From: Candidatus Aminicenantes bacterium
GTDB taxonomy: Bacteria > Acidobacteriota > Aminicenantia > Aminicenantales > Saccharicenantaceae
Length of the DNA stretch: 64,000 nt
Direction: 5' to 3'
NCBI GenBank assembly: GCA_017999365.1
Contig: JAGNLW010000002.1
Span: forward strand, 160,530 to 224,529
Shown one piece after another: positions 23,257-62,540 of the stretch (position 1 is its first letter; every line of letters starts with the position of its first letter). The position numbers and the translations under genes are program-made. A model generated the notes under the pieces. It saw only the letters and a program-made list of their open reading frames with translations. It did no database searches and was not told where the DNA came from.

Positions 23257-23595
23257 TCAATCGCCGACGATCTCGATCAATCCTTCGATGGCCCGGGCCA
23301 GCTCTTCCGGGGAGAGCACGGCCGCGACCTCGCCGAGACGGTCGACCGAAAGCGTGCGGACCTGGCCGATCTTGAGCCAGGACCTCTTGGGCAAATCTCC
23401 GGGCCCGATCTCTATGGTCAACGGGAATCCGGCCCGTTGAGGCCGGCCGGTGAGGGCCATGGCGATGACGGTCCCGGACCGTTCGTTGAAGACGTCGTGA
23501 CTGATGACGAGGACCGGGCGGCGGCCCGACTGCTCATGGCCGCGCACAGGGCTCAGGTCAGCCCAGCGGACCTCTCCCCTCAATATTCGGGCCAT
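23257..23595 (-). CDS. mazF: MazF/PemK-family endoribonuclease toxin
   Basis: RGEVRWADLSPVRGHEQSGRRPVLVIS signature of MazF/PemK; start at MARILRGE. Confidence 0.8.
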   Translation of the reverse strand: MARILRGEVRWADLSPVRGHEQSGRRPVLVISHDVFNERSGTVIAMALTGRPQRAGFPLTIEIGPGDLPKRSWLKIGQVRTLSVDRLGEVAAVLSPEELARAIEGLIEIVGD

Positions 23596-23822
23596 TCGGC
23601 CGCCTCCGCGGAGAGCCCTTCCTCCGCGAGCTCCTTCTCGTGGGCCCGGTCGAGTTTGGCGCATTCGGCGGCCAGGCGGATACGGGCCAGCCGGTCGAGC
23701 TTCTCGGCGACCGCGATCTCGATGGCCTGGCTCCGATTGGAAAAGTCCCCGCCACGGACCAGCGCGTCGATGCGCGCCAGGGCCTGTTCGTCGATGGATA
23801 TGGCGATCTTGGCTTTGGGCAT
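23580..23822 (-). CDS. ribbon-helix-helix (CopG/MazE-like) antitoxin
   Basis: MPKAKIAISIDEQALARIDALV... RHH pattern; overlaps mazF start by 16 nt. Confidence 0.7.
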   Translation of the reverse strand: MPKAKIAISIDEQALARIDALVRGGDFSNRSQAIEIAVAEKLDRLARIRLAAECAKLDRAHEKELAEEGLSAEAAEWPEY

Positions 23823-23971: not shown

Positions 23972-25378
23972 TCAGGCGTGGGGGATGGAGGTGTGGGCCG
24001 AGATCTCGGAGTTCGTCGTGACCAGGTCGGCGACCGAGAGCTCGCGGACGGCGCCGTGGCCCGTGAGCCGGACGAAAGCCTGCAGTTCCTCGGTCGAGAC
24101 GCGCAGGAAGTTGGCCAGCCCGCGGGCCGCCTCCTCGACGTCGAGCCGGGCCCGCAGGCCCGGGTCCTGGGTGGCGATGCCGACCGGGCAGCGCCCCGAA
24201 TCGCAAATGCGGTACTGCTGGCAGCCGATGGCCATGAGCGCCGCCGTCCCGATGGCTACGGCATCGGCGCCTAGGGCCAAGGCCTTGGCGAAATCGGACG
24301 AGACGCGCAGGCCGCCCGTGACGATAAGCGACACGCCCTCGACGCCGCGGGCCTCGAGCCAGCGGCGGGCCCGGTCGAGGGCGTAGACCGTCGGCACGGA
24401 CGTGGCGTCCTTGACGACCTTGATGGCCGCCCCGGTGGACCCGGCCCGGCCGTCGATGGTGACGAAGTCGGGGCCGCCGGCCAGGGCGAAATCGAGATCG
24501 GCCTCGACGTCCCCGGCGGCGAACTTGACCCCGACGGGCCGCCCTCCGGAGATCTCGCGCAGCTCGTCGATCTTGCGCCGCAGGTCCTCCCGGGTGACGA
24601 TGTCCGCGAAGCGCGACGGGCTGACGATGTCCACGCCCTCGGGGAAGCCGCGCGCGGCGGCGATCTCGGCCGTGACCTTGCTACCGGGCAGGTGGCCGCC
24701 CATGCCGGGCTTGGCCGACTGGCCGAACTTGATCTCGACGGCGTCGACGCGCTTCAGGTTCTCGGGCGTGGCGCCGTAGCGGTTGGGGACGTACTCGAAG
24801 ATGAACTTTTGGGCCTGCCCCAAGGCGTCCTCGAGGATGCCGCCCTCGCCCGAGCCCAGCGCGGTGCCGGCGGCGGCGCTGCCGAGGGCCAGGGCCGAGA
24901 GGGCCTCCTTCGACAGGGCCCCGAACGACATGTGGCTGACGAGGATGGGCGTGCCCAGGACGAGCGGCTTGGCCGCCCGCGGCCCGATGACCGTCCGCGT
25001 GTCGACCGGGTCGTCGCGGTCGAGCGGCCGGCGGGCCAGCTGGGCGCCCTTGATGAGGACGTCGTCCCAGGACACGACCGGCTTGCGCGTCCGCATGGGC
25101 TCGACGACGGACTCGCCGGTCAGGGCTACGCGGTGGATGTCGGCCATGCGCGTCTCGAGCTCGTCGGAGGCCCGGCGGAGGTCGTCGACGGTCTTGGGTT
25201 CGCGCGCGGGCTCGGCCGGCGGCGGGGCCAGCTCCGGCTCGTCCTCGACCCGCTCGAACTCCGACTTGGCCGCGCCGCAGACGGGGCAGACCCAATCGGG
25301 GGGCAGGGCGGCGAAGGAGATGCCCTCGGTCCTCTCGTCGTAGACGTACTGGCAGATGCGGCAGCGGTACTTGCCCAT
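23972..25378 (-). CDS. rubredoxin-fused glutamate synthase-related FMN-binding (GltS domain 2-like) protein
   Basis: N-terminal CxxC...CPxCG rubredoxin motif (CRICQYVY...CPVCGAAK), then GltB FMN-domain similarity (ILVSHMSFGALS, GSGEGG, KFGQSAKPGMGGHLPG, C-terminal CxxxxxGRC cluster). Confidence 0.8.
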   Translation of the reverse strand: MGKYRCRICQYVYDERTEGISFAALPPDWVCPVCGAAKSEFERVEDEPELAPPPAEPAREPKTVDDLRRASDELETRMADIHRVALTGESVVEPMRTRKPVVSWDDVLIKGAQLARRPLDRDDPVDTRTVIGPRAAKPLVLGTPILVSHMSFGALSKEALSALALGSAAAGTALGSGEGGILEDALGQAQKFIFEYVPNRYGATPENLKRVDAVEIKFGQSAKPGMGGHLPGSKVTAEIAAARGFPEGVDIVSPSRFADIVTREDLRRKIDELREISGGRPVGVKFAAGDVEADLDFALAGGPDFVTIDGRAGSTGAAIKVVKDATSVPTVYALDRARRWLEARGVEGVSLIVTGGLRVSSDFAKALALGADAVAIGTAALMAIGCQQYRICDSGRCPVGIATQDPGLRARLDVEEAARGLANFLRVSTEELQAFVRLTGHGAVRELSVADLVTTNSEISAHTSIPHA

Positions 25379-25456
25379 GGTCTCCCCGGCGCCGGGTATC
25401 TTAGCATCGAACACAGGGCTAGACAACTGGCTCCTCAGCTTGCTTCCGCGGGGGCT

Positions 25457-25646
25457 TGGCGCTTATCCCAAGAACGGGTGGCCGGGGGCCAGTCCCCGGC
25501 CGCCTGGAGGCGGAAGGGGTTCCCCACGGGAGCTTCTTCTTAAGATACTTCCCAGATGCGCCGCTTCGAGCCGCTCCGCGACGCATCTGGTCCTCCGCTT
25601 CGCTCCGGGTAGGCCCCCCGGACAGGACCCGTTCGGGGATAAGCGC
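25457..25646. ncRNA. candidate structured RNA / cis-regulatory leader (~190 nt) closed by a 20-bp long-range helix
   Basis: GGCGCTTATCCC-AA-GAACGGGT (25457-25478) pairs with ACCCGTTC-G-GGGATAAGCGCC (25626-25646); internal hairpins GGCCGGGG/CCCCGGCC, GGGGTTCCCC, CCAGATGCG/CGCATCTGG. Confidence 0.3.
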
Positions 25647-25675
25647 CCCGACCGCCTAGTGTGGCTCCGAAGGGC

Positions 25676-27844
25676 CTACAAACGCCACCAGTAGGAGAAC
25701 TTGACGAAGACGTTGTAGTTGTCGCGGATGAGCTTGCCGAACTCGTCGCGCAGGTAGTTGTTGTCGAAGCCCAGGAAGAAGACCGTGCCGGGCCGCAGGA
25801 CCCAGCTCGCCAGGAGGCTGCCGAAGGCCTGCTTGTAGAAGAAGTTGTAGTCGACGATGGCCCGGAAGGACAGCGTCTTGCTGACCTGATAGGTGACCTT
25901 CTCGCGGACGACGTTGTAGTCCCAGTTCCCGGCCCCGCCGTCCCGGTCCCAGAAGGTCTGCTTGCTGAAGTCCGTGCCGAGCTGGAGGCGCTTGTCGGGC
26001 TTGAAGGTCGCCGAGATGCCATAGGTGTTGCTGTAGCCGAGGTAGGGATCGTCGGGGTCGTAATTGATGCTGTCGCCGGTCTCGAAGAACAGGAACAGGG
26101 GCATCCAGCTGATGTACGTGAACTGGGCCTCGACCGACAGGTTCTGCTTCTTGAAATCGATCCCGGCGAAGCGCTCCATCCCGGCTTCGTACGAGACGAA
26201 GACCTGGTTGAACTCGGTCATGCGGAACTGGACCGAGGGCCGGATCCAGGTGTCCTGCTTGACGCTGTCGGCGTAACCGAAGCGTTCCCCGGCCTGGAGC
26301 CGGAAGCGGACCTGGTTGAGGTACTTCTTGTCGGTATAGACGACGTAGGAGGCGAACCCCCCGGCGCTCCGGTAGTCCGCCCGGTTGACGAAGCCCAGGG
26401 CGGCCTGGAAATCGGGGTGGATGGCCTTGTAGAAGCCGCCCAGGGTCCAGTGCTTGGTCGTGTAGTAGAGCTCGCCGTACAAGCCCGGGGCGAAGTCCGT
26501 CCGGTCGCCCTCCAGGCTCGAGCTCGAGGCCAGGGCCTGGAAGTTGAAGAAGACCCGGTCCTTGAACCGCAGCTGGCCGTCCAGGCCGCCCAGCCGGCTC
26601 CAGGTGCCGCCGCCGAGCTCCTTGTCGGTCAGGGTGAAGCCGATGTAGGACCCCGTGCCGACGTCGGCCTTGGTCCGGAAGACGTTGGAGAACGCCTTGG
26701 CGTCGGCGAGACCCGTCCCGCCGGAGATGTCCCACAGGCTCTCGACGGGGTGCGTGTCGTAGGCCGAGAGCAGGCCGTAGGTGAACCGCCCGGCCTTGCC
26801 TGAGGCCTTGGCCCCGAAGATGGGGTCGTTGATCTGGCGGGTGTAGACGGTCTCGATCTCGGGCGAGTTGAAGATCTCCATGCCCTCGAGGAAGAAGGGC
26901 CGCTTCTCGTTGTAGCGCAGGGCGTAGCGGAGGTTGTAGTCGATCTTGGGCTCGTCGGCCTCGATCTGGCTGAAGTCGGGGTTGGCCGTCAGGTCCAGGG
27001 TCGTATTGGAGGACAGGCCGAGCTTGAAGTTGGCGCCCGGCTCGAAGTCCAGCTTCCGCCCCTCGACCGCCGGGCCGCCGCGGGCGAGCGAGGTCACGAA
27101 GGGCATGACCTCGACGTTGCGGCTGCGCTCGACGGCCCCCTGCAGGAGGTAGGGCCGGCCGTTGGAGAGCAGGCCCGGGATGTCGCGGGAGAAGTTCGGG
27201 TACAGGATGACCTCGCCGGTCCGGGGCAGGTTCCGGCCGAGGACGATGTTCCAGGTCTTCGGATCGACGTTCGGGAAGCGCAGGCTCTTGAACGGGATGG
27301 CCATCTCGACGGTGTAACCCTCGGCGTCGATCTTGCCGTCGGACGCGAAGACCGTGTCCCAGCTGTCGTCCATGTTGTCGCTGCCGCCCTCCTCGATCCG
27401 CATCATGTCCATCTGGACCCCGGCCGGATTGATGAGGAAGGAGAAGGCCCGGCGCTTCTCGTTGAAGGTGTCGAGCATGATGAAGACCCAATCGTCCTCC
27501 ATGCAGCCGTCGCGCTTGGTGATCGAGCAGCGGACCCTGCCGGCCTGGGAGTCGAAGGCCCGGAAGGCGACGTAGAGGTTCTTCTCGTCGAAGGCCAGGT
27601 AGGCCACCGTCCTCTCGGTCGGGACGCCGTTCTCCTTGGGCGCCAGCTGGATGAAGTCCTCGACCTTGAGGGCCTGGGTCTCCCAGATGGGATTGTCCAG
27701 GACGCCGTCGATCTTGGGGGCCTCCGTCAACCGCGGGATGCGCAGAGGCTCCTTGGGGACGGGCGTCTGGGCGGAGGGGAAGGCCGCGGCCGAGGCCGCG
27801 GCCAAAGCTATCGTCAACGCCGCGAGGGCTGTTCGGTATCTCAT
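25676..27844 (-). CDS. outer-membrane protein of DUF5916 / carbohydrate-binding family 9-like type
   Basis: Signal peptide MRYRTALAALTIALAAASAAA; N-terminal CBM9-like region; long beta-rich C-terminal domain ending ...FSYWWRL. Confidence 0.7.
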   Translation of the reverse strand: MRYRTALAALTIALAAASAAAFPSAQTPVPKEPLRIPRLTEAPKIDGVLDNPIWETQALKVEDFIQLAPKENGVPTERTVAYLAFDEKNLYVAFRAFDSQAGRVRCSITKRDGCMEDDWVFIMLDTFNEKRRAFSFLINPAGVQMDMMRIEEGGSDNMDDSWDTVFASDGKIDAEGYTVEMAIPFKSLRFPNVDPKTWNIVLGRNLPRTGEVILYPNFSRDIPGLLSNGRPYLLQGAVERSRNVEVMPFVTSLARGGPAVEGRKLDFEPGANFKLGLSSNTTLDLTANPDFSQIEADEPKIDYNLRYALRYNEKRPFFLEGMEIFNSPEIETVYTRQINDPIFGAKASGKAGRFTYGLLSAYDTHPVESLWDISGGTGLADAKAFSNVFRTKADVGTGSYIGFTLTDKELGGGTWSRLGGLDGQLRFKDRVFFNFQALASSSSLEGDRTDFAPGLYGELYYTTKHWTLGGFYKAIHPDFQAALGFVNRADYRSAGGFASYVVYTDKKYLNQVRFRLQAGERFGYADSVKQDTWIRPSVQFRMTEFNQVFVSYEAGMERFAGIDFKKQNLSVEAQFTYISWMPLFLFFETGDSINYDPDDPYLGYSNTYGISATFKPDKRLQLGTDFSKQTFWDRDGGAGNWDYNVVREKVTYQVSKTLSFRAIVDYNFFYKQAFGSLLASWVLRPGTVFFLGFDNNYLRDEFGKLIRDNYNVFVKFSYWWRL

Positions 27845-27981
27845 GCCTGCCTGCCTTGGACCGGAATAGGAACCGGCGGGGATCTCGTTCCCCGCGCTAA
27901 CAATGACGGAGGCGCGGTCCAAAAGGTTCCCCTGAGGGCCGGCCGCGAGTATAATGGCGGCTCGAGCCCGCGCACGGAGGT

Positions 27982-29267: not shown

Positions 29268-31700
29268 ATGTCGGTGCTCCGTCGGCTCTTCCGCCGTGAT
29301 GATCCGCCCCCCGCGCTCCGTCTCCGCGGCGGCGACGCCTTCGAGGCCTCGGCCGCCGAGGCCGGTCTCACGGCCCGCGAGGCCGAGATCGTCCGCCTCC
29401 TCATCGAGGGACGGGACAACCGGGCCATCACCGAGGCCCTGTTCATCGCCGACCACACCGTCAAGAACCACATCCACAACATCTACCGCAAGCTCGACAT
29501 CCGCAACCGGGTCCAACTCGTGCGCCGCTTCCAGGCCGTTCTCGAGGAGCCCGGCCGGGCGGCGGCCGCCGCGGCGCCCCCGGCCACGGTGCGCCGGCCG
29601 CGCCTCCTACGGGCCGCCCTGGCCGCCGTCCTCGTCTTCGGCCTCGCCGCGGCCCTCGTCGCCTGGAAGCCCTGGCACCGGCGGGCCGGGCGGGGCGTGT
29701 CGGCGCCGCCCCCGGCCCTGGCCGTGCTCGATTTCGAGAACGCTTCGGGCGACGCCGACCTCGGCAAGTGGGCCACGGGGCTCCCGGCCCTGCTGACGAC
29801 CGACCTCCAGCAATCCCAACGCTTCCGCACGGTGGGGACCGACCTCGTCTTCGGCGCCCTCAGGAAGCACGGCCTGGCCGCGGCCGGCCGCTTCTCCCGC
29901 GAGGAGCTCCGCCGCCTGGCCCGCGAGCTCAAGGCCGACTACCTCCTCTGCGGCCGGCTGATGAAGGCCGGCCCGGCCATCGTCGTGACGACCACCCTCC
30001 AGGACGCCCGGACCGGCGACGCCGTCCGGACCGACCGGATCGTCTGCGCCGACGAGCAGGCCCTGCTCGGCGAGGCCGACGCGCTCTGCCGGCTGATCAG
30101 GTCCGGCCTCGAGCGGAAGGCGGCCGCCGCGAGGGACGAGGTCGACCACGACGTCGAGGAGCTGACCACGTCGTACGCTCTGGCCTACCGCTACTACGCC
30201 GAAGCCCTGCGCTACCATGCCACCGGCGACTACGAGCAGAGCCTGCTGATGCTGAAGAAAGCCGTCGATCTCGACCCCCAGTTCGCCCTGGCTTACCGGC
30301 TGATGTCCGTCGATGCCCGCAACCTCGGCTACTTCGCCCAGGAAGCCGAGTACATGCGGACGGCTTTCGAGCTGAGCGGGCGCCTGCCCGAGAGCTCCCG
30401 GGAGCGCCATCTCATCCGGGGCGATTACTACAGCCTCCAGGAAGCCACCTTCCCCCTGGCCGTCGAGGCCTTCCGTCTGGTTCTCGAAGGCCACCCGGAC
30501 GACCTCGTCGCCAACAACAACCTGGGCATGCTCTACTACGACCTCGAGGACTACGAGGCCGCCGCCCGTTCGGCCGAGGTCCCCATCCGGAGCGGGACGG
30601 ACAACCCCTTCCCCTACCACACCCGGGCCATCGCCCTGAGGGCCCTGGGCCGGAGCGCCGAGGCCGCGCGCCTGCTCGAGTCCTACCATGCCGTGCACCC
30701 GGCCAACCGGCTCGTCTACGAAACGCTGCTCGATGTCCTGATCGACGGCGGCGATTTCACGGCGGCCGAGGCCGCGTTGGCCAAGGCCGAAGCCGTGTTC
30801 CCCGACCCCGCCTGGTCCTATTGGCGGGGCGCCGTGCTCTTCCATACCCGGGGCGCCGCCGCGGCCCGCGAGGAGTTCCGCCGCCTCTTCCTCATGGAGG
30901 AGGCGCCCTGGTTCCTGAGGGCCCACGAACAGCTCGGCGCCGTGGCCGAGGCCGGCGGCCGGTTCCGCGAAGCCGCCGAGGAGTACGGCAAGGGCGCCGG
31001 CATGGCCGAGACGACCGGCCAGACCGATTGGGTGACGGTCCTCCGTCTCGGCCGGGGCCGGGTTTTCCTCGAACTGGGGAACGCGGCGGCCGCGGCCGTC
31101 GAAGCGGACAAAGCCGTCGCGGCCGCCCGGAAGGCCAGCCAGAGCTACCGGCTGGCCGCGGCGCTGACGTTCCTGGCCGAAGCCCGCCTCGGGTCCGGGG
31201 ATGCGGCCGGGGCCGAAACGGCCGCCGCCGAATCGCGGGCCCTGGCCGCCACCGGCAAGACGGCGCGGCTGGCGCGGGAACACGAGTTCCTTCTGGGGCT
31301 GATCGATCTCGCGGCGGGCCGGACCGCCGAAGCCGTCATTCGCCTGGAAAAGGCCCGCTCGCTCGTCTCCCGGCGGGACCGCCTCGACGGCCGCAACGTC
31401 CTCTATTCGCTGGCGCTGGCCGAGGCCCGGGACCGGGCGGGCGACGCGGCCGGCGCGGCCGGGGTCTTACGGCCTTACATCGCCGCCCCGGGCAACACCC
31501 TGCGGGCGGGCGGATCCTACGGCCGGGCCCTCCTGGCTTTGGCCCGCTTGGACGCGAAGCTCGGCCGGACGGACGCGGCCGGGGCCGGGTACCGCGCCTT
31601 CCTCGAACTGTGGAAGGACGCCGAGCCGGGCCGGCCGGAGATAGAAGAGGCCCGGAACCGCCTGTCGGCCGCGCCGGCCAAAGCCGGCCAAGACCGCTGA
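29268..31700 (+). CDS. membrane-anchored LuxR/GerE-type HTH regulator with periplasmic sensor-like + TPR domain
   Basis: N-terminal LuxR HTH (LTAREAEIVRLLIEGRDNRAITEALFIADHTVKNHIHNIYRKL), single TM (LLRAALAAVLVFGLAAALVAW), motif ALAVLDFENASGD...LTTDL, multiple TPR-like repeats. Confidence 0.75.
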   Translation: MSVLRRLFRRDDPPPALRLRGGDAFEASAAEAGLTAREAEIVRLLIEGRDNRAITEALFIADHTVKNHIHNIYRKLDIRNRVQLVRRFQAVLEEPGRAAAAAAPPATVRRPRLLRAALAAVLVFGLAAALVAWKPWHRRAGRGVSAPPPALAVLDFENASGDADLGKWATGLPALLTTDLQQSQRFRTVGTDLVFGALRKHGLAAAGRFSREELRRLARELKADYLLCGRLMKAGPAIVVTTTLQDARTGDAVRTDRIVCADEQALLGEADALCRLIRSGLERKAAAARDEVDHDVEELTTSYALAYRYYAEALRYHATGDYEQSLLMLKKAVDLDPQFALAYRLMSVDARNLGYFAQEAEYMRTAFELSGRLPESSRERHLIRGDYYSLQEATFPLAVEAFRLVLEGHPDDLVANNNLGMLYYDLEDYEAAARSAEVPIRSGTDNPFPYHTRAIALRALGRSAEAARLLESYHAVHPANRLVYETLLDVLIDGGDFTAAEAALAKAEAVFPDPAWSYWRGAVLFHTRGAAAAREEFRRLFLMEEAPWFLRAHEQLGAVAEAGGRFREAAEEYGKGAGMAETTGQTDWVTVLRLGRGRVFLELGNAAAAAVEADKAVAAARKASQSYRLAAALTFLAEARLGSGDAAGAETAAAESRALAATGKTARLAREHEFLLGLIDLAAGRTAEAVIRLEKARSLVSRRDRLDGRNVLYSLALAEARDRAGDAAGAAGVLRPYIAAPGNTLRAGGSYGRALLALARLDAKLGRTDAAGAGYRAFLELWKDAEPGRPEIEEARNRLSAAPAKAGQDR

Positions 31701-38726: not shown

Positions 38727-39638
38727 ATGACCGGACATGGGCGCCGGCGTTTTCCCGTCGCCTTGGCGTTGGCCCTGTCCGCGAACCTCGCCGCGGCCGG
38801 CGCTGCGGCACGGCCCCCGGAGGACGCCGCCAAGCGGCTCTGCCGGGCGGCCCGCGAAGGCGACGTCCCCACGGTCGTCAAGGTCCTCCGCGTCTCGCCC
38901 GATGCGGTGGCCGAGGCCGACCAGTTCGGGTACACGGCCCTCCACTGGGCCGCCCTGTGCGGCCGCCGGGAAGTCCTCGACCTCCTGCTCGCCGCCGGGG
39001 CCTAGACCGGCGTCCCGGCCGGCGACGAGGGGCGCACGCCCCTCTATCTGGCCTCGCTGCGAGGGCGGGACGAGATCGTCGGGGCCCTGCTGGGCGCGGG
39101 CGCGGCAGTGAACGGCCGGGATCGGACGGGGCGGACGGCGGTCCACGCCGCCGCCGATCAGGGACAGGCCCAGGTCTTGGAGCGGCTCATCGGCCAAGGG
39201 GGCATGGTCGACGTCCGCGACGACGAGGGCTTGACGCCTCTCCACTTGGCCTGCCAGGGCGGCCACGAGCTCGCCGCCCGCCTGCTCGCGGAGCACGGGG
39301 CCGCCGTCGATCCCGTCGACGGCTTCGGGGAAACGCCGCTCCATTTGGCGTCGCTGACCGGGAACTGCCGCCTGGCGGCCCTTCTCCTCGAACGGGGCGC
39401 CGCGCTCGAGACCCGGGACGGCGGCGGCTCGACGCCGCTCCTCCGGGCCGCCCGGAGCGGCCATGTCGCGTTCGCCCGGGACCTCATCGCCGCCGGCGCC
39501 GACATCGACGCCAAGGACGCCTCGGGCCGGACGGCCCTCGATTACGCCCGCCTGTTCGCCTTCGACGACCTCGTCGCCCTGCTCCAAAAACGGGGCAAAA
39601 ATGGGGGACATGATACCTATTTCCCAATTATTAATTAG
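38727..39638 (+). pseudogene. secreted ankyrin-repeat protein interrupted by a single in-frame TAG (39003-39005)
   Basis: ORFs 38727-39005 and 39108-39638 are in the same frame; the codons between them translate as continuous ankyrin repeats (TGVPAGDEGRTPLYLASLRGRDEIVGALLGAGAAVNGRDRTGRTAVH...). Confidence 0.5.
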
Positions 39639-39658
39639 GAAATAGGTATCATGTCCCC
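39604..39658 (-). terminator. rho-independent terminator: perfect 21-bp inverted repeat + 13-nt AT loop, T5 tract on minus strand
   Basis: GGGGACATGATACCTATTTCC caattattaatta GGAAATAGGTATCATGTCCCC; on minus strand followed by TTTTT (39596-39600); directly after trmN6-like gene stop; overlaps ankyrin gene 3' end. Confidence 0.65.
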
Positions 39659-40385
39659 GAATTAGCCGGAGAAGACGGCCTCGGCCGCGGCCGTGTAATG
39701 GCCGTCGGGGCCGAAGAGGACGAGGGGCGGCATGACTTCCGGCCCGGCGCCTGCCGGTTCCCCCGCCCCCCCCTTCGCCAGCTCGACGAGGATCAGGTTG
39801 GCCGGCGCGCCTTCGCGGGGATGGACGAAGCGCAGGCGCCGCGGGCCGAGCCCCGCCTCCTGCGCCGCGGCCAGCAGGTCGGCCCGCCGTCTCTCCGGAT
39901 AGACGAAGCAAGCCCGTCCGCCGGGCGCGAGCCACTCGGCGGTCCGCTCCGTGATCTCGGCGATCGTGCCGTGGAGTTCGTGCTTGGCCGCGGACCTTTC
40001 GGCCGACGGGCCGAGGAAGCCGGTCGCGCCCTTGATGTAGGGCGGGTTCGAGAAGACGAGGTCGAAAGTCCTCCCAGGGTCGTAGGTCCTGAGGTCCCCT
40101 TCGACGACCTCGATCCGGCCGCCCAGGCCGTTCAGCTCGACGTTGCGCCGGGCCAGGTCGGCCAGCCCCGGTTGGATCTCGAGCGCCGTGACGCGTCTGA
40201 ACGGCTTAACGCTCAGGAGCAGGGCCACGACGCCGCTCCCCGTCCCGATCTCGAGGGCCTCGTCGCCCTCCCGCGTCCGGATGAAGTCCGCGAGAAGCGG
40301 CGCGTCGACGGAGAACCGGTAGCCCTTCTTCCGCTGGAGGACGCGGACGCGCCCGTGGTAGAAGGCGTCGAGGGTCTCGCCGCCG

Positions 40386-42985
<2,600 letters not shown>

Positions 42986-45634: not shown

Positions 45635-46053
45635 CAGTCCCCCAGGACCCGCTTCTCGATGGACTCGGCGATCTCCTCGGTACGCTTGTCGAGGTCCTTC
45701 TTGAGGGCCTCCGTCTCCCGGCGGAGCTCCTCCTTGGCCTTCTCGACCTCGGCCCGGCCCTCGGCCTGGACCTCGCGGACGAGCCGGCTCTTGTCCTTGA
45801 GGGCTTCGGTCTCGGCGGCGGCCCGGATGGCGTCGGCCGCGGCCCGGGCCTCCTTGAGGCCGTCCTCGATGCGCTTGAGGTCGCCCTCGGCGGCCTTGAG
45901 GGCCTCTTCGGCGGCGGCCTTGTCCCTGGCGATGCGCGAGGCCCGCTCGTCGAGGACCTTCAGGATGGGCTTGAAGAAGATCCGGGTGAGGATCAACACC
46001 AGGACCCAGACGATGGCGAAGACGACCAAGGCCGTCGCGTCGATTTGAAGCAT
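45634..46053 (-). CDS. atpF: F1Fo ATP synthase subunit b
   Basis: MLQIDATALVVFAIVWVLVLILTRIFFKPILKVLDER... TM + coiled-coil b-subunit pattern. Confidence 0.75.
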   Translation of the reverse strand: MLQIDATALVVFAIVWVLVLILTRIFFKPILKVLDERASRIARDKAAAEEALKAAEGDLKRIEDGLKEARAAADAIRAAAETEALKDKSRLVREVQAEGRAEVEKAKEELRRETEALKKDLDKRTEEIAESIEKRVLGD

Positions 46054-46224
46054 CAGGCGACTTTCCCAGAGGGAAAAGTAAAGGAAAATGTACCACGATT
46101 GGGGTCGAAAAGCAATCGCTCAGAACCTCTCACGACATGTTCCGGCATGGCCGTCGCCGGATCGCCCGACCTCGCCTTTGAGGACGGCCGGGACGACGTT
46201 CTGCGGGTTCTTTCGTGAGGGGAC

Positions 46225-46253
46225 TTGACAAATAGACATTTGAATATTACAAT
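46225..46253 (+). promoter_or_regulatory. near-consensus sigma70 promoter TTGACA-N17-TACAAT upstream of vapBC
   Basis: TTGACA 46225-46230, 17-nt spacer, TACAAT 46248-46253; 33 nt before vapB ATG. Confidence 0.45.
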
Positions 46254-46286
46254 GCATTTGAACCAAGGAACGAATAGGGTTACCTG

Positions 46287-46529
46287 ATGAGAACGACCAT
46301 CGAATTGTCGGACGACCTGATCGCCGCCCTCCACGCCCTGGCGGTGAGGAAAGGGCACCGGGGCTATTCCCGGATCATGGAGGAGGCAGTCAAGCACTAT
46401 CTCCGCGATCTCGAGAAAAAAGAGGGGACTTGGAGCGTCCTTATGAAGATGAGGGGGAGCTGGACCGCCGAAGAAGCCGAAGAGACGAGAAAGAAACTCG
46501 AGGAGCTACGGACAAATTGGCCCGCCTAG
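46287..46529 (+). CDS. vapB: VapB-type (RHH/MetJ-Arc) antitoxin
   Basis: MRTTIELSDDLIAALHALAVRKGH... RHH N-terminus; immediately precedes PIN-domain gene. Confidence 0.75.
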   Translation: MRTTIELSDDLIAALHALAVRKGHRGYSRIMEEAVKHYLRDLEKKEGTWSVLMKMRGSWTAEEAEETRKKLEELRTNWPA

Positions 46530-46903
46530 TGGTCGCGGACACCGACGTCGTCATCGATTTCTTCACCGACGAGGCCCCACGGGCCCGGGTCGTGGCGGAG
46601 CTGCTGACAGAGAAGCGCTTGGCCGTCGCGGCCATTTCAGTCTTCGAGCTCTATGCGGGGATCCGGGGTGCCAAGAGACTGAAACAGCTGGAATCGTTCT
46701 TCACGCACGTGCCTGTCTTGCCGCTCGACGTCCTGGCGGCCGCCTATGCGGGCCGGATCTATACGGATCTCCGGTCGGCGGGAGTGACCGTCGGCAACCA
46801 GGACATCCTCATCGCCGGGACCTGCCTGGCGAACGGCCTTCCCCTCTTCACCGGGAACACATCCCACTTCGCCTCCATCAAGGGCCTAACCCTCTTCCCC
46901 TGA
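46529..46903 (+). CDS. vapC: VapC PIN-domain ribonuclease toxin
   Basis: GTG start overlapping vapB stop (TAGTG); LVVADTDVVIDFF... PIN acidic residues, C-terminal LPLFTGNTSHF. Confidence 0.75.
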   Translation: MVADTDVVIDFFTDEAPRARVVAELLTEKRLAVAAISVFELYAGIRGAKRLKQLESFFTHVPVLPLDVLAAAYAGRIYTDLRSAGVTVGNQDILIAGTCLANGLPLFTGNTSHFASIKGLTLFP

Positions 46904-47017
46904 ATTGAGCGGAGGTGCGCAAGGCCGGCCGGCCAACGTTGGTGGCGTCGACCCGCCCGCCCATTTCGGCTTGACTTAGCCTTTTCGCTTGAATATCCTC
47001 AGATCGAGGGCGAGTCG

Positions 47018-47191
47018 ATGATGGGCGCAACGCCTGATTATTGGCTTTGGGATTCCGCCTATGAATGGTCAAAGGTGATGGAAATGGCTCAGCTGACACT
47101 CGATCTCATGAAGGCTTTTCAGGAGCGCCTAGAAGCGTTTGCTACATCAGTTTCAGTATCAATTGGTTTTGCCCTCTCCGGGGCCATCTAA
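47018..47191 (+). CDS. small hypothetical ORF (57 aa) in low-GC island
   Basis: Manual translation MMGATPDYWLWDSAYEWSKVMEMAQLTLDLMKAFQERLEAFATSVSVSIGFALSGAI; too short for ORF track. Confidence 0.2.
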   Translation: MMGATPDYWLWDSAYEWSKVMEMAQLTLDLMKAFQERLEAFATSVSVSIGFALSGAI

Positions 47192-47198
47192 CAACAAC

Positions 47199-47510
47199 AT
47201 GAAGATCCGGAGCACTGTTTCCTGGGGCGCAATTGGCGCTGCGATCTTTATTGCCGTGGGCATTTTGACTGTGCTTCTCGGTGAGGACGGAGGCTTCTGG
47301 GGAAATTTCTTTATGATATTAAGTATTCCTGCAGTCCATATCTGGGCGATGCTGCTAAGCCTATTCTTCGGTACTGTTGAGGGGCCGCCCAGCGGTTATC
47401 GGATATATTTCTTGATCTATATGGGTACGCTTGGCTTCTTCGTAGGCAGTCTGTCAAGAGCTCTGCGTATGAGATGGAGGAGGCGTCGGGGGGATCAGAA
47501 CGATGGATGA
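47199..47510 (+). CDS. small membrane protein (3 predicted TM helices) in low-GC island
   Basis: MKIRSTVSWGAIGAAIFIAVGILTVLLGE...; hydrophobic segments; low GC. Confidence 0.4.
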   Translation: MKIRSTVSWGAIGAAIFIAVGILTVLLGEDGGFWGNFFMILSIPAVHIWAMLLSLFFGTVEGPPSGYRIYFLIYMGTLGFFVGSLSRALRMRWRRRRGDQNDG

Positions 47511-47612
47511 TCTGCATGCTAATTGGCTAATAGCCGGTCGAGAACGGTAAAATGCGGTGTCAAAGAATGGCAATGGACTGATTGATCTGGAATCGTCTCC
47601 CGGAGCCGGCTC

Positions 47613-48731
47613 TTGGACGAGCAGAGGCGAGAGCGGGAGGGGAAGGAAGCCGATAAAGACTCAGACCGAGCCCGGGAGAGGAGGACCGATGCCGCCGGGC
47701 CGGCCGATAGAACAGATAGGTCTGGCGATTGCTCATCCGGTACGGCCAAAATGATGTCCGCTTCCCCCGTCGGAAACTTCTACATCTACTCCTCTGACGG
47801 CAAGCTGCTCCAGGTGTACGATGTTTATGGGGCGCTGCTAAAGGACTTCATCTATATGGGAAGCCGGCTTATCGCCGAGTACGACCATGTCGGTGCGCGC
47901 CTTCTCTACTACACGCCGGACCAGATCAATTCCACCCGCGTCGTGACGGACCAGAGCGGAAATGTCGTCTATTCGGCGACCTATGCTCCCTATGGCGAGA
48001 TCAGGACTGAGCAGGGTACCGTGGACCCGTTGCCGAAGTTCTCGGGCAAGGAGCGCGACGCCGAATCGCAGCTCGATTACTTCGGGGCGAGGTACTTCGA
48101 CAGGAATATCTATAGGTTCATTTCGGTGGACCCCGGTGCTACTTCGAGTGACGCGGCGATAAACCAACAATACTTGAATCTTTACTCATATTGCCTAAAT
48201 AACCCCGCCCTTGGTATGGACCCAGATGGAAGAGATGTAATTATCAGCGTATTCCGGACAAGCTCGACCCCTAACAGCACGACAGGCATTATGTTCCTTT
48301 GCGATAAGTCGTTATATCCGACCGAATCTCTGGGGCCGACCTGGGAGCTCGGCTATAACAATAATGCTCAAAATATTAGCTGCATTGAGTCCGGCATTTA
48401 TACGGGACATGCCGTGCTCCGCCTAGACCTAGGATACGATGTCATTCAATTGGATAATGTTAAGGGAAGGATGTCTATTCAGATTCACCCTCATGGAAGG
48501 CGCAATTACGGATGTATTGGAATGAAACGGGGGTGGGCCTTTCAGTCGCTCATGGGCAAGCTTGGTATCATGGGTAATTTCCCGTATTTTGGTCCGAACG
48601 GGGGGATTAATATTGATGTCCCGATTAGCAATGGTCCGATAATTGTCTACGTCTTTTGGTGGGACTTTCCCAAAATTAAAGAGCTAATACCTATCGTGAC
48701 ATATACATACAAGGTAACCAAGGTCTTCTAA
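47613..48731 (+). CDS. orphan Rhs/YD-repeat C-terminal fragment with variable toxin tip (likely real start ~47751 MMSASPVG)
   Basis: YD repeats (YYTPDQINSTRVVTDQSGNVV, YAPYGE), RHS core end FSGKERDAESQLDYFGARYFDRNIYRFISVDPG...NLYSYCLNNPALGMDPDGR, then ~185-aa unrelated C-terminal domain; low GC. Confidence 0.7.
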   Translation: MDEQRREREGKEADKDSDRARERRTDAAGPADRTDRSGDCSSGTAKMMSASPVGNFYIYSSDGKLLQVYDVYGALLKDFIYMGSRLIAEYDHVGARLLYYTPDQINSTRVVTDQSGNVVYSATYAPYGEIRTEQGTVDPLPKFSGKERDAESQLDYFGARYFDRNIYRFISVDPGATSSDAAINQQYLNLYSYCLNNPALGMDPDGRDVIISVFRTSSTPNSTTGIMFLCDKSLYPTESLGPTWELGYNNNAQNISCIESGIYTGHAVLRLDLGYDVIQLDNVKGRMSIQIHPHGRRNYGCIGMKRGWAFQSLMGKLGIMGNFPYFGPNGGINIDVPISNGPIIVYVFWWDFPKIKELIPIVTYTYKVTKVF

Positions 48732-49399
48732 TGAAAAAAAGAATGCATCCGCAGTTCTGCTTGAAGGTGGGCGGTCTTTCGCTCTTTTCCTTGCTGATAT
48801 TATTTCTTTTCTATGGCCCATTATTGGCATCGCACCAGGAAACGGGAATAGACTGGAATAAAGTGCAAGAAGCTTTCAAGTCCTATATAAACGATCCATC
48901 ACAAATTCACGGCCACGAACTCGTGAGAGTGCTTCCGACAACAAGACATGTCCTCGGTGAAATGGAAGCTGCATATAAAGACCGTCTGGCGACCCTTAGC
49001 CTGATCTTCGCCGCCGATTATTTTAGTCAGTTCATCGAAAGGGTTCGTGGGGGGGATAGATACGCGATAGAAGCCGCTTTTAGGATCTTCAATTTCACCG
49101 ACGGGGGAGCGTCAGAGGAGATAATGATAATATTAGGAGATTCGTTGCGGGAAAACCCGCTTGATTTTCTCATTGTCGCAAAAAAGCACAAAAAACTGTC
49201 AAACTCCGAGGATTATCTTGCCCCAGCAATCATGACAAGATATGAAGTTGGCTCTGATCTCGAGACAAGTGAATTGAGGTTACGGCTAAAAGCCCTTGAG
49301 AGTGTAGATGAGCCTGGTCTTTTCGAGGTTAGAAGAGCTTTAATTGAAGAGATATCGAAGGCACTACGGGACGACCTCCCGGAAAAAGTGGGCGCTTGA
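48731..49399 (+). CDS. candidate cognate immunity protein (signal peptide/TM anchor)
   Basis: Start overlaps toxin stop (TAATG); N-terminal hydrophobic segment; AT-rich codon usage matching toxin gene. Confidence 0.5.
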   Translation: MKKRMHPQFCLKVGGLSLFSLLILFLFYGPLLASHQETGIDWNKVQEAFKSYINDPSQIHGHELVRVLPTTRHVLGEMEAAYKDRLATLSLIFAADYFSQFIERVRGGDRYAIEAAFRIFNFTDGGASEEIMIILGDSLRENPLDFLIVAKKHKKLSNSEDYLAPAIMTRYEVGSDLETSELRLRLKALESVDEPGLFEVRRALIEEISKALRDDLPEKVGA

Positions 49400-49492
49400 A
49401 ATGGGACACGCCACTCGAAGCTCGAGACTGCCCGTTACAGCGGCACCAGAATTACAAGTCCCCTTTCTTTCCGAGGGATCTGGGCGTAGGGA

Positions 49493-50803
49493 CTAGAACA
49501 ACCGCAGACGCTTGACCTCGCCGATGAGGAAGAGCGAGCCGGCGATGACGACCGGCGTTCGGGGACATGTCCCTCGGGTACGTGTCCCCAAAGACAAGGC
49601 CAGCTCGACGGCCTTGCGGGTGTCGGGCTCGAGGAAGATCGGGCCTTTGAAGGACGGCGGCGCGGCGGCCAGGAGCTCCTCGGGCGAGGCCGAGCGCTTG
49701 TAGGGGACGCGGGTCAGGACGACCGCGGCGGCCCGCGGGAAGAGGACCCGGGTCATGGCCGCGAGGTCCTTGTCCTTCATGGCCGCGAAAACGAGGACGA
49801 CCGGGCGGCGGATCACGTCCTCGAGGTGGACGGCCAGCGCTTCGGCGCCTTCGGGATTGTGGGCCCCGTCGAGGAGGACGAGGGGACGGCGCCGAACCGT
49901 CTCGAGCCGGCCTTCCCAACGCGCCTCTCGAATAGCCCCGAGGACCTTATTCTTACCGAACGGCTTCCAGGTCCGGGACAGGACTTCCGTCACGGCGATG
50001 GCCACGGCGGCGTTGGCGCCCTGGTGGCGGCCGGCGAGCCCGGGCGTGAAGGCGTAGCGGCCGTTCTCGCCCGCGTAGACGAACCGGTATCCGTCGCGGG
50101 TCTTGACCGTCTCGAGCCCCCTCCCCTTCCCGAAGACCTCGGTCAGGGCCGCTCCCCGTTCGCGCGCCGCCTGCCGGATGACGCGCAGGGCCGGCCCGCC
50201 GGCGACGCCGCAGACGACGGGCACCCCCGGCTTGACAATGCCGGCCTTCTCGAAGGCGATCTTCGCGAGCGTCGCGCCGAGGTGCTCCTCGTGGTCCTTG
50301 GCGATGGTCGTGACGACGGAGACGAGGGGCCGGACGACGTTGGTGGCGTCGAACCGGCCGCCCATGCCGACCTCGAGCACGGCCGCGTCGACCCCGCGCT
50401 CGGCGAACTCGAGGAAGGCCAGGGCCGTCAGGACCTCGAAATAGGTCGGGTGATAGACGAGCCGGCCCTCGGCCATGAGGGCGTCGATGACGCCCTTGAG
50501 CCGGGCCACGAGCTCGCGGAAGCGCGCCGGGGCGATGGCCTTCCCGTCGATACGGACCCGCTCCTCCACCCGGGCCAGGTGCGGCGAGGTGTAGAGGCCC
50601 GTCCTCAGCCCGTGGGCCCGTATGATCCCGGCCAGCATGGCCGAGACCGAGCCCTTGCCGTTCGTCCCGGCCACGTGGACCGACAGGAATTGGTTCTGGG
50701 GATTGCCGAGGGCGGCGCACAGTGTCGTGACGTTCTCGAGGCCGAGCTTGATGCCGAAGTGCTGGAGGCGGCCGAGATAGTCCCGGCACTCGGACGGGGT
50801 CAT
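49493..50803 (-). CDS. folC: bifunctional folylpolyglutamate synthase / dihydrofolate synthase
   Basis: HVAGTNGKGS P-loop, Mur-ligase family similarity throughout; start MTPSECRDYLGRLQ. Confidence 0.85.
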   Translation of the reverse strand: MTPSECRDYLGRLQHFGIKLGLENVTTLCAALGNPQNQFLSVHVAGTNGKGSVSAMLAGIIRAHGLRTGLYTSPHLARVEERVRIDGKAIAPARFRELVARLKGVIDALMAEGRLVYHPTYFEVLTALAFLEFAERGVDAAVLEVGMGGRFDATNVVRPLVSVVTTIAKDHEEHLGATLAKIAFEKAGIVKPGVPVVCGVAGGPALRVIRQAARERGAALTEVFGKGRGLETVKTRDGYRFVYAGENGRYAFTPGLAGRHQGANAAVAIAVTEVLSRTWKPFGKNKVLGAIREARWEGRLETVRRRPLVLLDGAHNPEGAEALAVHLEDVIRRPVVLVFAAMKDKDLAAMTRVLFPRAAAVVLTRVPYKRSASPEELLAAAPPSFKGPIFLEPDTRKAVELALSLGTRTRGTCPRTPVVIAGSLFLIGEVKRLRLF

Positions 50804-59150: not shown

Positions 59151-61712
<2,562 letters not shown>

Positions 61713-61842: not shown

Positions 61843-62169
61843 ATGTTGACATTGTATATATATTGTAATAAACTGATCACGTGGGATGAGAAGAAGAACG
61901 CCCTCCTTAGAGAGCGCCGGGGCATCTCGTTCGAAGATGTCGCCGAGATCCTCGTCCGGAGCGGACCCGTATGGGCGAGAGAGCATCAACGGCCCGACAA
62001 GTACCCGGGCCAGCGCCAACTTGGCGTGGTGATCGCGGGTTATGTCTTCATCGTCCCCTATGAGGAAACGGATGAAACCATCCACTTCAAAACCGTCTAT
62101 CCGAGCCGGCGAGCAACCGGAGAGTATTTCGGAATTGGAGCGAAGAATAAAAGGAAAGGCCCGCCATAA
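61843..62169 (+). CDS. brnT: BrnT-family (RelE/ParE superfamily, DUF497) toxin; start codon uncertain (ATG 61843 / TTG 61852 / CTG 61873)
   Basis: ITWDEKKNALLRERRGISFEDVAE matches BrnT N-terminus; low GC; TTGACA at 61846-61851 inside annotated 5' end. Confidence 0.7.
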   Translation: MLTLYIYCNKLITWDEKKNALLRERRGISFEDVAEILVRSGPVWAREHQRPDKYPGQRQLGVVIAGYVFIVPYEETDETIHFKTVYPSRRATGEYFGIGAKNKRKGPP

Positions 62170-62449
62170 GGGCTTTTTCGAGCCTTTGGACGATCAGGAG
62201 CGAGATCTCCGCGAAGCGATCGAAGGAGGCGAGCTCGCCCCCGTCCCGGATGAGGAGGCCGAAAAGGAAAAGCTGGTCCGAGCGGCGCGGGCGACGCTCG
62301 CTAAGAACAGGCACATCAGCATCAGGCTCTCCGAAAAGGACCTCTTCCGCCTCCGGGCCAAGGCCGGCGAGTTGGGTATCCCCTATCAAACCTTGATCGG
62401 CTCCATCCTCCATCAGTACGCCGAGGGTAAGGTCAAAGCGTCGTTCTGA
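62042..62449 (+). CDS. brnA: BrnA-family antitoxin (C-terminal RHH); start uncertain (possible TTG ~62133)
   Basis: C-terminus HISIRLSEKDLFRLRAKAGELGIPYQTLIGSILHQY matches BrnA; annotated ATG would overlap brnT by >100 nt. Confidence 0.6.
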   Translation: MSSSSPMRKRMKPSTSKPSIRAGEQPESISELERRIKGKARHKGFFEPLDDQERDLREAIEGGELAPVPDEEAEKEKLVRAARATLAKNRHISIRLSEKDLFRLRAKAGELGIPYQTLIGSILHQYAEGKVKASF

Positions 62450-62540
62450 AATCCCGGCTCGCCCGCCGGTTTTCCTTCGGCGAAATGGGTGAATGGGTAT
62501 TGTGTCCCCGTTTTGTTTTCGCTAGGATGGGAGGGCCCCC

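Follow-up and report, generated by a model that had tools for sequence, protein, structure and literature searches.

A dispersed, modular palindromic repeat family in intergenic DNA of Candidatus Aminicenantes

A highly structured element of 190 nt lies at positions 25458-25647 of a 64,000-nt stretch of Candidatus Aminicenantes DNA (contig JAGNLW010000002.1; the whole stretch is called the window here), in the spacer between a DUF5916 gene and a gene encoding a rubredoxin-glutamate synthase (GltS) protein. We consider it, with a probability of roughly 70%, to be one copy of a dispersed, modular and imperfectly palindromic intergenic repeat family of the Aminicenantes (Acidobacteriota), non-autonomous, mobile now or formerly, and of the same kind as ERIC, REPIN and MITE (for miniature inverted-repeat transposable element) sequences. 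An initial annotation had offered three readings of the element: a riboswitch or leader of the rubredoxin-GltS gene, a stand-alone small RNA, and a REP-like structured repeat. The dispersed copies reported here support the last of these, and are also what the annotation itself had named as an observation that would tell against an RNA.

Results

The window copy is of the middle-size form and runs from the first base of its 5' arm to the last base of its 3' arm, as delimited by the inverted repeats and by its match to the family profile hidden Markov models (HMMs; E = 2e-46). By convention, the plus strand of the window gives the A-to-F orientation of the family; no strand is assigned to the copy or its parts. 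The long inverted repeat with a small internal loop that had been described earlier is present as an outer pair of 12-nt arms (GGCGCTTATCCC at 25458-25469 and GGGATAAGCGCC at 25636-25647) and an inner pair of 8-nt arms (GAACGGGT at 25472-25479 and ACCCGTTC at 25627-25634), both 100% complementary. The initial annotation had recognised the element itself, but its positions were shifted by one base.

Two conserved arms enclose the interior of the element. The A-end arm, GGCGCTTATCCC-AA-GAACGGGT (25458-25479), is the conserved 5' terminus of the family, nearly invariant in alignments A1, A2 and A4, with pair counts from 26 distinct copies, and extends outward as GGGAnCAAGG in most copies. The F-end arm, ACCCGTTC-G-GGGATAAGCGCC (25627-25647), identified by the inverted repeat, the alignments and the pair counts, is the conserved 3' terminus and is followed by TTGATCCC in most copies. 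Between them lie module B (25480-25532), composed of the hairpin GGCCGGGG/CCCCGGCC, then CCGCCTGGAGGCGG and GGGGTTCCCC, which is shared with the short form of the repeat and aligns to positions 4-78 of the short-form HMM; module D (25533-25617), composed of CTTCTTAAGATAC, a 13-bp hairpin (25552-25590) and the tail TCCTCCGCTTCGCTCCGGGTAGGCC, which is common to the middle and long forms (alignments A1 and A4); and an unpaired segment, CCGGACAGG (25618-25626), which adjoins the F-end arm and whose columns are invariant in A1, A2 and A4. All of the enclosed local hairpins noted earlier are present in the sequence, including GGCCGGGG..CCCCGGCC at 25480-25501, GGGGTTCCCC at 25516-25525 and CCAGATGCGCCGC/GCGACGCATCTGG at 25552-25590. 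The module D stem CCAGATGCGCCGC bears a likeness to CCGGATGCGGCG, which we take to be the Escherichia coli REP sequence, and this is treated as a lead only.

Folding of the 221-nt region was compared with dinucleotide shuffles, giving z = -5.2 for the plus strand and -3.5 for the minus strand, with none of 200 shuffles as good. The window has a G+C content of 68% and contains 18 seed pairs of perfect 12-mer inverted repeats no more than 300 nt apart, compared with ~5 in Markov simulations. Because such pairs are not rare in this GC-rich window, the arm alone is weak evidence; the element is counted as real on account of the dozens of other copies that have the same arms and interior. Two further perfect 14-nt inverted-repeat pairs, each with its arms within 300 nt, occur in the window, at 31448-31668 and 60865-61049, and are probably inside coding regions. 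Elsewhere in the window, a GC3-filtered ORF list leaves 4.7 kb (46053-50800) free of accepted ORFs, probably through over-strict filtering and unlikely to reflect a true gap.

Exact-pattern scans and profile HMM searches identified more than 45 related copies in ~15 unrelated intergenic contexts, located in metagenome-assembled genomes (MAGs) from Aminicenantes and Acidobacteria and in metagenomes, with several contigs or MAGs carrying more than one. Six Aminicenantes/Acidobacteria MAGs contain the 20-base arm pattern GGCGCTTATCCCN{1,2}GAACGGGT, at 10 places in all, three of these MAGs having it on two different contigs, and the 22-base 3'-end pattern GACAGGACCCGTTCNGGGANNAGCG was found on 31 metagenome contigs and gave no match in viral contigs. 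Plasmid and phage collections likewise held no match to the repeat. The HMM searches added copies inside the same contigs, such that L039 has two full copies and L034 has two copies plus a lone module D. These counts are lower bounds, as only about half of the metagenome copies fit the first pattern and a sub-family with altered arms (TCAAGACGCT...AGCGTCTTGA), in which both ends change together, fits neither. Within the 64-kb window the family HMMs detected no other copy.

Across the family, both ends are nearly invariant, the 5' end being (GGGAnCAAG)GCGCTTATCCC-AA-GAACGGGTGGCCGGGG and the 3' end, CCGGACAGGACCCGTTC-G-GGGATAAGCGC(CTTGATCCC), its inverted repeat. Mini-hairpins of the form GGGAT-N10-ATCCC are possible only where the outer flank has been kept. 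Between these common ends (alignments A1, A2 and A4) the repeat occurs in three forms that together span 138-255 nt. The short form (~138 nt) is 95% identical across 15 copies from different loci, loops included, and folds as one near-perfect rod (146 nt), the left arm of which is similar to the right arm in reverse complement. Middle forms (165-190 nt, including the window copy) have module B in common with the left half of the short form, and module D where the short form has its right half. In the long form (~250 nt) three consecutive hairpins stand inside the closing helices.

The modules also behave as units in their own right. Module D occurs alone at L034 4746-4828 and L037 621-703, where its stem carries a compensated change (CAGATGCGC to CAGAAGCGC). 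Truncated copies consist of only the 3' part (L008) or only the 5' part (L009), head-to-head composites are arranged around another palindrome (L032, L058), and some copies are nested centrally in larger unrelated palindromes (L022, L034, L038). Differences in copy length are not multiples of three, so that no reading frame is preserved. A small open reading frame (ORF) in the short form (ATGGGTGGAGCC... to TAA, 18 aa) was considered and rejected, because its module is missing from the window copy and the lengths differ by non-multiples of three.

The 600-nt flanks of the copies fall into ~15 unrelated locus classes. Among the products of neighbouring genes are a sortilin/BNR protein, a beta-lactamase-fold protein, aminotransferases, peptidases, a PfkB kinase and a sodium:solute symporter, with no common theme. 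All copies are intergenic and, where both flanks are known, all lie 6-60 nt from at least one stop codon; the adjoining genes are convergent in about 9 of the 15 classes and tandem in the rest, with none divergent.

To compare orthologous sites, the DUF5916-to-rubredoxin spacers of relatives were fetched through homologues of the rubredoxin protein. The spacer is empty in L050-54 (35 nt; protein 84% identical) and in L044/L045 (65 nt), and relatives lacking the repeat at this site have proteins 78-84% identical to that of the window. Where the repeat is present it takes the middle form in the window and in L023 and L057, close relatives whose copies at this locus are identical to the window copy, and the short form in L016 and L006. 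Different forms can thus occupy one orthologous locus, as seen for the window versus L016 and also for L001 versus L011. The symporter locus shows the same pattern: its site is empty in L061-63 and is occupied in L064, by a long form, and in L058, by a composite. The P0002 protein is 99% identical to the rubredoxin protein of the window, and there are indications, short of proof, that the window's own lineage carries copies at both the rubredoxin and the symporter (P0139) loci.

Other palindromes are found at these sites as well. The DUF5916-rubredoxin spacer holds a different palindrome (TTCGGTGACACACAACT...) in L055 and a third (GGGGACCTGGTCTTCGCA...) in L042, L043 and L056. At least two palindromic families other than the repeat, TTCGGTGACACACAACTnAATAC... 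and GGGGACCTGGTCTTCGCA...TGCGAAGACCTGGTCCC, were seen in L055 (1394-1490), in the flanks of L034 and L038 and in the spacers of L042, L043, L056 and L003; they use the same post-stop-codon sites in different lineages and host or replace the repeat. The window also contains an AT-rich near-perfect palindrome with 32-nt arms (AAATGGGGGACATGATACCTATTTCCCAATTA / TAATTAGGAAATAGGTATCATGTCCCCGAATT) at 39599-39663, between an ankyrin-repeat ORF (39108-39638) and, convergent with that ORF, a methyltransferase gene (39662-40417). Repeat copies in L022 and L033 are flanked by this motif family, which is also present as a palindrome in L018.

A half-site of the AT-rich motif (AATGGGTATTGTGTCCCC) lies at window positions 62492-62509, upstream of a DEAD-box helicase gene, and together with a downstream TAGGAT gives a promoter-like TTGTGT-17-TAGGAT; comparable GTCCCC...TAGAAT arrangements are found ahead of the symporter gene in L058, L061 and L064. 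The adjacent region (61860-62450) has a lower G+C content and two small ORFs whose translations, judged by eye, resemble a BrnT/BrnA-type toxin-antitoxin pair. A weak HMM match at 62330-62388 (E = 0.33) was dismissed, as it falls in this region read as toxin-antitoxin coding.

Assemblies tend to break at the repeat. Of 23 metagenome contigs available in full, ten end within 100 nt of a copy, against 1.5 expected (P < 1e-5, simulation), and 9 of 10 independent Logan contigs carrying the symporter protein P0137 start at the same base inside the repeat. L017 and L036 have one flank in common and not the other, and are in opposite orientation relative to the repeat; this exchange of flanks is the pattern expected for a rearrangement breakpoint at the repeat. 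In a separate comparison, L022 (4660-4675) and L033 have flanks that are 100% identical and an adjacent GG/AA change inside the repeat (TTTCCCGGATGCG versus TTTCCCAAATGCG), so that here the repeat varies where its flanks do not.

The genes on either side of the window copy are both on the minus strand. The upstream neighbour (25676-27853) encodes a DUF5916/CBM9 protein (Pfam DUF5916 1.4e-18, CBM9_1), and terminates at a stop codon (25678-25676) that is separated from the repeat by 28 nt. The downstream neighbour (23972-25378) encodes a rubredoxin fused to a glutamate-synthase FMN domain (Pfam Glu_synthase 2.5e-98, Rubredoxin 6e-10), begins with an ATG at 25378 preceded by GGGGAG, and its product is 100% identical to a protein from a Candidatus Aminicenantes MAG. 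The spacer between the two genes measures 297 nt (25379-25675) rather than the ~250 nt given earlier. Just downstream of the rubredoxin-GltS gene there is a MazF/PemK toxin gene (23257-23664, minus strand) with a small ORF upstream of it, where an annotated relative has an RHH antitoxin; at orthologous loci the pair is present in L042, L044 and L057 and absent in L045, L050 and L055.

Comparison of orthologous loci, both with and without the repeat, identified a block, TGCTAAGATA, that is invariant in alignment A3 and located 19 nt upstream of the ATG. Where room allows, TTGACC or TTGTCT is found 17 nt further upstream, giving TTGACC-17-TAAGAT in L044 and L045. The block is probably the extended -10 (TGnTAAGAT) of the promoter of the rubredoxin-GltS gene, which in the window would occupy 25398-25426 on the minus strand, with a -35 of TTGTCT (25426-25421), a 17-nt spacer and an extended -10 of TGC TAAGAT (25406-25398). 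A generic promoter and terminator scan of the region reported nothing; the putative promoter matches at only 8 of 12 positions and was recognised only through the comparison of orthologues. An 8-mer common to module D and the rubredoxin -10 region, TAAGATAC, was judged to be a chance match.

The proposed promoter sits between the repeat and the ATG and so, in the direction of transcription, downstream of the repeat. Because of this position, the repeat is not placed in the leader of the rubredoxin-GltS gene and, provided that the TGnTAAGAT promoter is the one used, would be outside the rubredoxin-GltS transcript. The strong predicted structure with its long closing helix, together with a location upstream of the gene, is what had made a riboswitch or a 6S-like or other independent small RNA gene plausible. 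Such a role is now highly improbable: the repeat is missing from the orthologous loci of the relatives described above, and the same repeat stands beside unrelated genes in ~15 contexts, mostly at their 3' ends, where a riboswitch belongs in the 5' untranslated region (UTR) of one functional class of gene. Moreover, the covariance-model search that had been proposed for the element gave no match with Rfam 15 at the gathering score over the whole window, nor at E <= 1 for the short and long forms, and at E <= 10 the region gave only stem-only chance matches far below threshold (sRNA-Xcc1, BjrC80). An independent RNA gene is further argued against because the flanks of the copies share no conserved promoter or terminator.

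The pattern of substitutions also fails to show the strand bias of an RNA. Among 26 distinct copies, departures from the closing-helix consensus comprise 18 G·T, 14 A·C and 24 other mismatches, and only 6 compensated cells. In this helix, therefore, it is mostly sequence and not pairing that is conserved, with no excess of G·U over A·C, and RNAalifold pair tables of the short form and of the long form likewise give G·U and A·C counts that are roughly balanced. As to the covariation that the initial annotation had suggested looking for, some inner helices carry compensated changes, and changes in the closing helix are mostly uncompensated.

An inverton was considered as a further explanation of the terminal repeats. 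Invertons are invertible promoters flanked by inverted repeats, for example the capsule promoters of Bacteroides fragilis. Applied to the repeat, this would make its terminal inverted repeats invertase sites, with flipping turning an internal promoter towards or away from the downstream gene. The repeat is similar to invertons in size (138-255 bp, with 20-30 bp inverted repeats) and in being a multi-copy family with common repeats; both orientations occur at the orthologous symporter locus and between L017 and L036 relative to their common flank; assemblies break at the repeat; and module D contains TAAGAT, the same hexamer as the -10 of the neighbouring gene. However, an 8-mer in common within a 300-nt region is expected by chance, no -35 precedes the TAAGAT of module D, a -10-like box is missing from the short form, and nothing seen inside the repeat amounts to a convincing promoter. 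Most copies lie between convergent genes, which offer a promoter switch no target. Loci in opposite orientation also differ in form (183 versus 231, 173 and 138 nt), which is not a simple flip, and a head-to-head composite such as L032 or L058 that then lost either of its copies would leave a single copy in one orientation or the other. Since, in addition, there is no recombinase gene within ±10 kb of the window copy, an inverton is rated as very unlikely.

Several observations weigh against a mobile repeat of the ERIC/REPIN/MITE kind. Target-site duplication was not found: counts of 2-8 bp direct repeats at outward offsets of 0-13 in 26 copies were at or near chance. The window and loci, ~400 kb together, gave no transposase, RAYT or recombinase in the parts scanned, which included the 28 ORFs of the window and 8 neighbour ORFs (no Y1_Tnp match) and the annotation within ±10 kb. 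Because neither was seen, mobility is read from the distribution of the copies alone. Copy density appears low to moderate: the 64-kb window has a single copy and the DNA examined roughly one in every 60-100 kb, fewer than for REP and REPIN sequences, which typically number in the hundreds. Compensated changes are present in inner helices of L015 (three pairs) and L026/L027 (G-C to A-U), in the long-form hairpins of L036 and L010, in the lone module D, and in the arms of the AAGACGC/GCGTCTT sub-family. Finally, orthologous pairs are 95-99% identical in the repeat versus 75-92% in flanking, mostly coding DNA, which plain selfish decay does not predict.

The last two of these observations bear on what maintains the repeat. 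The compensated changes in inner helices indicate that palindromic symmetry or pairing is maintained, in RNA or DNA; this could be through RNA, through single-stranded DNA or through repair between the arms. The conservation of the repeat above its flanks (the spacer adjoining the repeat is 60-90% identical in the same orthologous pairs) points to selection, to homogenisation between copies, or to both; any such selection would be purifying and act on the sequence, as in recognition by a protein.

These findings could also be accommodated by a domesticated RNA element, in which selection acts on RNA hairpins and not on a DNA replicator, the hairpin stabilising 3' UTRs, separating tandem and convergent genes as a factor-independent terminator or an insulator, or serving as a substrate for a double-strand RNase. 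The constant position 6-60 nt from a stop codon, often between convergent genes, is consistent with such a role, as are the very stable fold on both strands, the compensated inner helices, the conservation of the repeat relative to flanking coding sequence, and the way in which palindrome families take one another's place at a given post-stop site, as though that site called for a hairpin. It is nevertheless unlikely. In spite of the hairpin and the post-stop position, a scan gave no terminator-like site, and no T-run or U-tract follows the hairpin, which sets it apart from canonical intrinsic terminators. Several relatives have intact genes and yet an empty site, truncated copies persist, and changes in the closing helix are mostly uncompensated and lack strand bias. 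In addition, loops and bulges are as invariant as stems, which a plain hairpin function would not require.

If the element is a mobile or formerly mobile repeat, as we favour, copies would land or be kept in short spacers just after stop codons, often where other palindromes already sit. The lack of target-site duplication would fit a mechanism using hairpin or single-stranded DNA (HUH/RAYT-like), or recombination between copies, better than cut-and-paste by a DDE enzyme. The likeliest local effect of the window copy would be passive: transcripts reading through the end of the DUF5916 gene would finish in a very stable 3' hairpin, which could act as a barrier to 3' exonucleases or limit the read-through that reaches the next promoter.

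Discussion

In summary, the element between the DUF5916 and rubredoxin-GltS genes is best placed in a new repeat family of the general kind of ERIC, MITE and REPIN sequences, and is not a member of any named family. The ERIC/IRU elements of Enterobacteriaceae are imperfect palindromes of 127 bp that are classed as MITEs, and elements of this type have been reported with terminal inverted repeats, target duplications and a flanking TA (PMC3184786). Like ERIC, the short form of the Aminicenantes repeat is an imperfect palindrome of ~130 bp that folds into a long stem-loop, and the family occupies transcribed intergenic DNA close to the 3' ends of genes, in both orientations, with a consensus that is highly conserved across species. 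ERIC, as reportedly described by Hulton in 1991 and by Wilson and Sharp in 2006, also has longer and shorter variants that arise from internal insertions or deletions at fixed points. Unlike ERIC, the Aminicenantes repeat has no target duplication and its internal modules are separate hairpin units, at least one of which occurs alone; moreover, the two share no sequence similarity and come from different phyla.

Classical bacterial MITEs include Correia of Neisseria, Nezha and Chunjie (PMC3184786). The Aminicenantes repeat shares with them terminal inverted repeats of 20-30 bp, with arms conserved in the 26 distinct copies, a non-coding core of 100-250 bp, dispersal, presence or absence between relatives, and a stable RNA stem-loop when co-transcribed at gene 3' ends. 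It differs from them in that target-site duplication was not observed, the window and fetched loci yielded no parent insertion sequence with matching ends, and the interior is as conserved as the ends.

REPINs are doublets of REP (repetitive extragenic palindromic) sequences that form hairpins and are mobilised by RAYT transposases (PMC3337134; bioRxiv 10.1101/2021.07.10.451892). The Aminicenantes repeat resembles them in having two inverted units in one long hairpin, in its strictly extragenic location, in the absence of target duplication, in its persistence at orthologous sites with a conserved 'master' sequence, in its more complex nested arrangements and in the sub-family in which both ends change together. 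REPINs differ in their size (~100 bp, with REP palindromes of ~14 bp) and number (hundreds per genome), whereas the Aminicenantes repeat is 138-255 nt long, is conserved throughout its interior, has an apparently far lower density, and is not linked to a RAYT gene among the ORFs scanned. REPIN populations are vertically inherited and long-lived, and stay near a master sequence (bioRxiv 10.1101/2021.07.10.451892; PMC3337134); by this comparison they appear to be the closest published parallel to how the repeat is conserved.

A further likeness is to BOX elements of Streptococcus pneumoniae and the BIMEs of E. coli, which similarly place a few modules in variable combinations between conserved end modules. 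The modules of the Aminicenantes repeat are nested hairpins inside one closing helix, whereas BOX is a tandem A-Bn-C array and BIMEs are clusters of REP sequences.

A stronger proposal, which we regard as doubtful but worth stating, is that the family is a long-lived, vertically inherited replicator maintained by selection, REPIN-like with large modular units of 138-255 nt and a putative HUH/RAYT-type enzyme, or else a repeat domesticated as a 3'-end RNA element. If true, this would explain the conservation of the repeat above that of neighbouring coding sequence, the co-varying ends of sub-families, and the at least four palindrome families that compete for, and nest in, the same post-stop-codon sites.

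Looking forward, the analysis removes a false lead from annotation, as the repeat is not a regulator of the nitrogen/redox enzyme; before Aminicenantes genomes are searched for riboswitches, similar 'structured leaders' should be treated as repeats and masked. The family also accounts for the contigs that repeatedly break in metagenome assemblies of Aminicenantes, and it marks points of rearrangement. A limited literature search found no description of such elements from the Aminicenantes, and Rfam and the plasmid and phage collections held no match. The biology of bacterial repeats gains a palindromic family that is modular and well delimited, together with at least three companion palindrome families, from an acidobacterial lineage that is uncultivated. 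Because the repeat is more conserved than its adjacent genes, it is a reasonable test case for repeats that persist as vertically inherited sequence populations.

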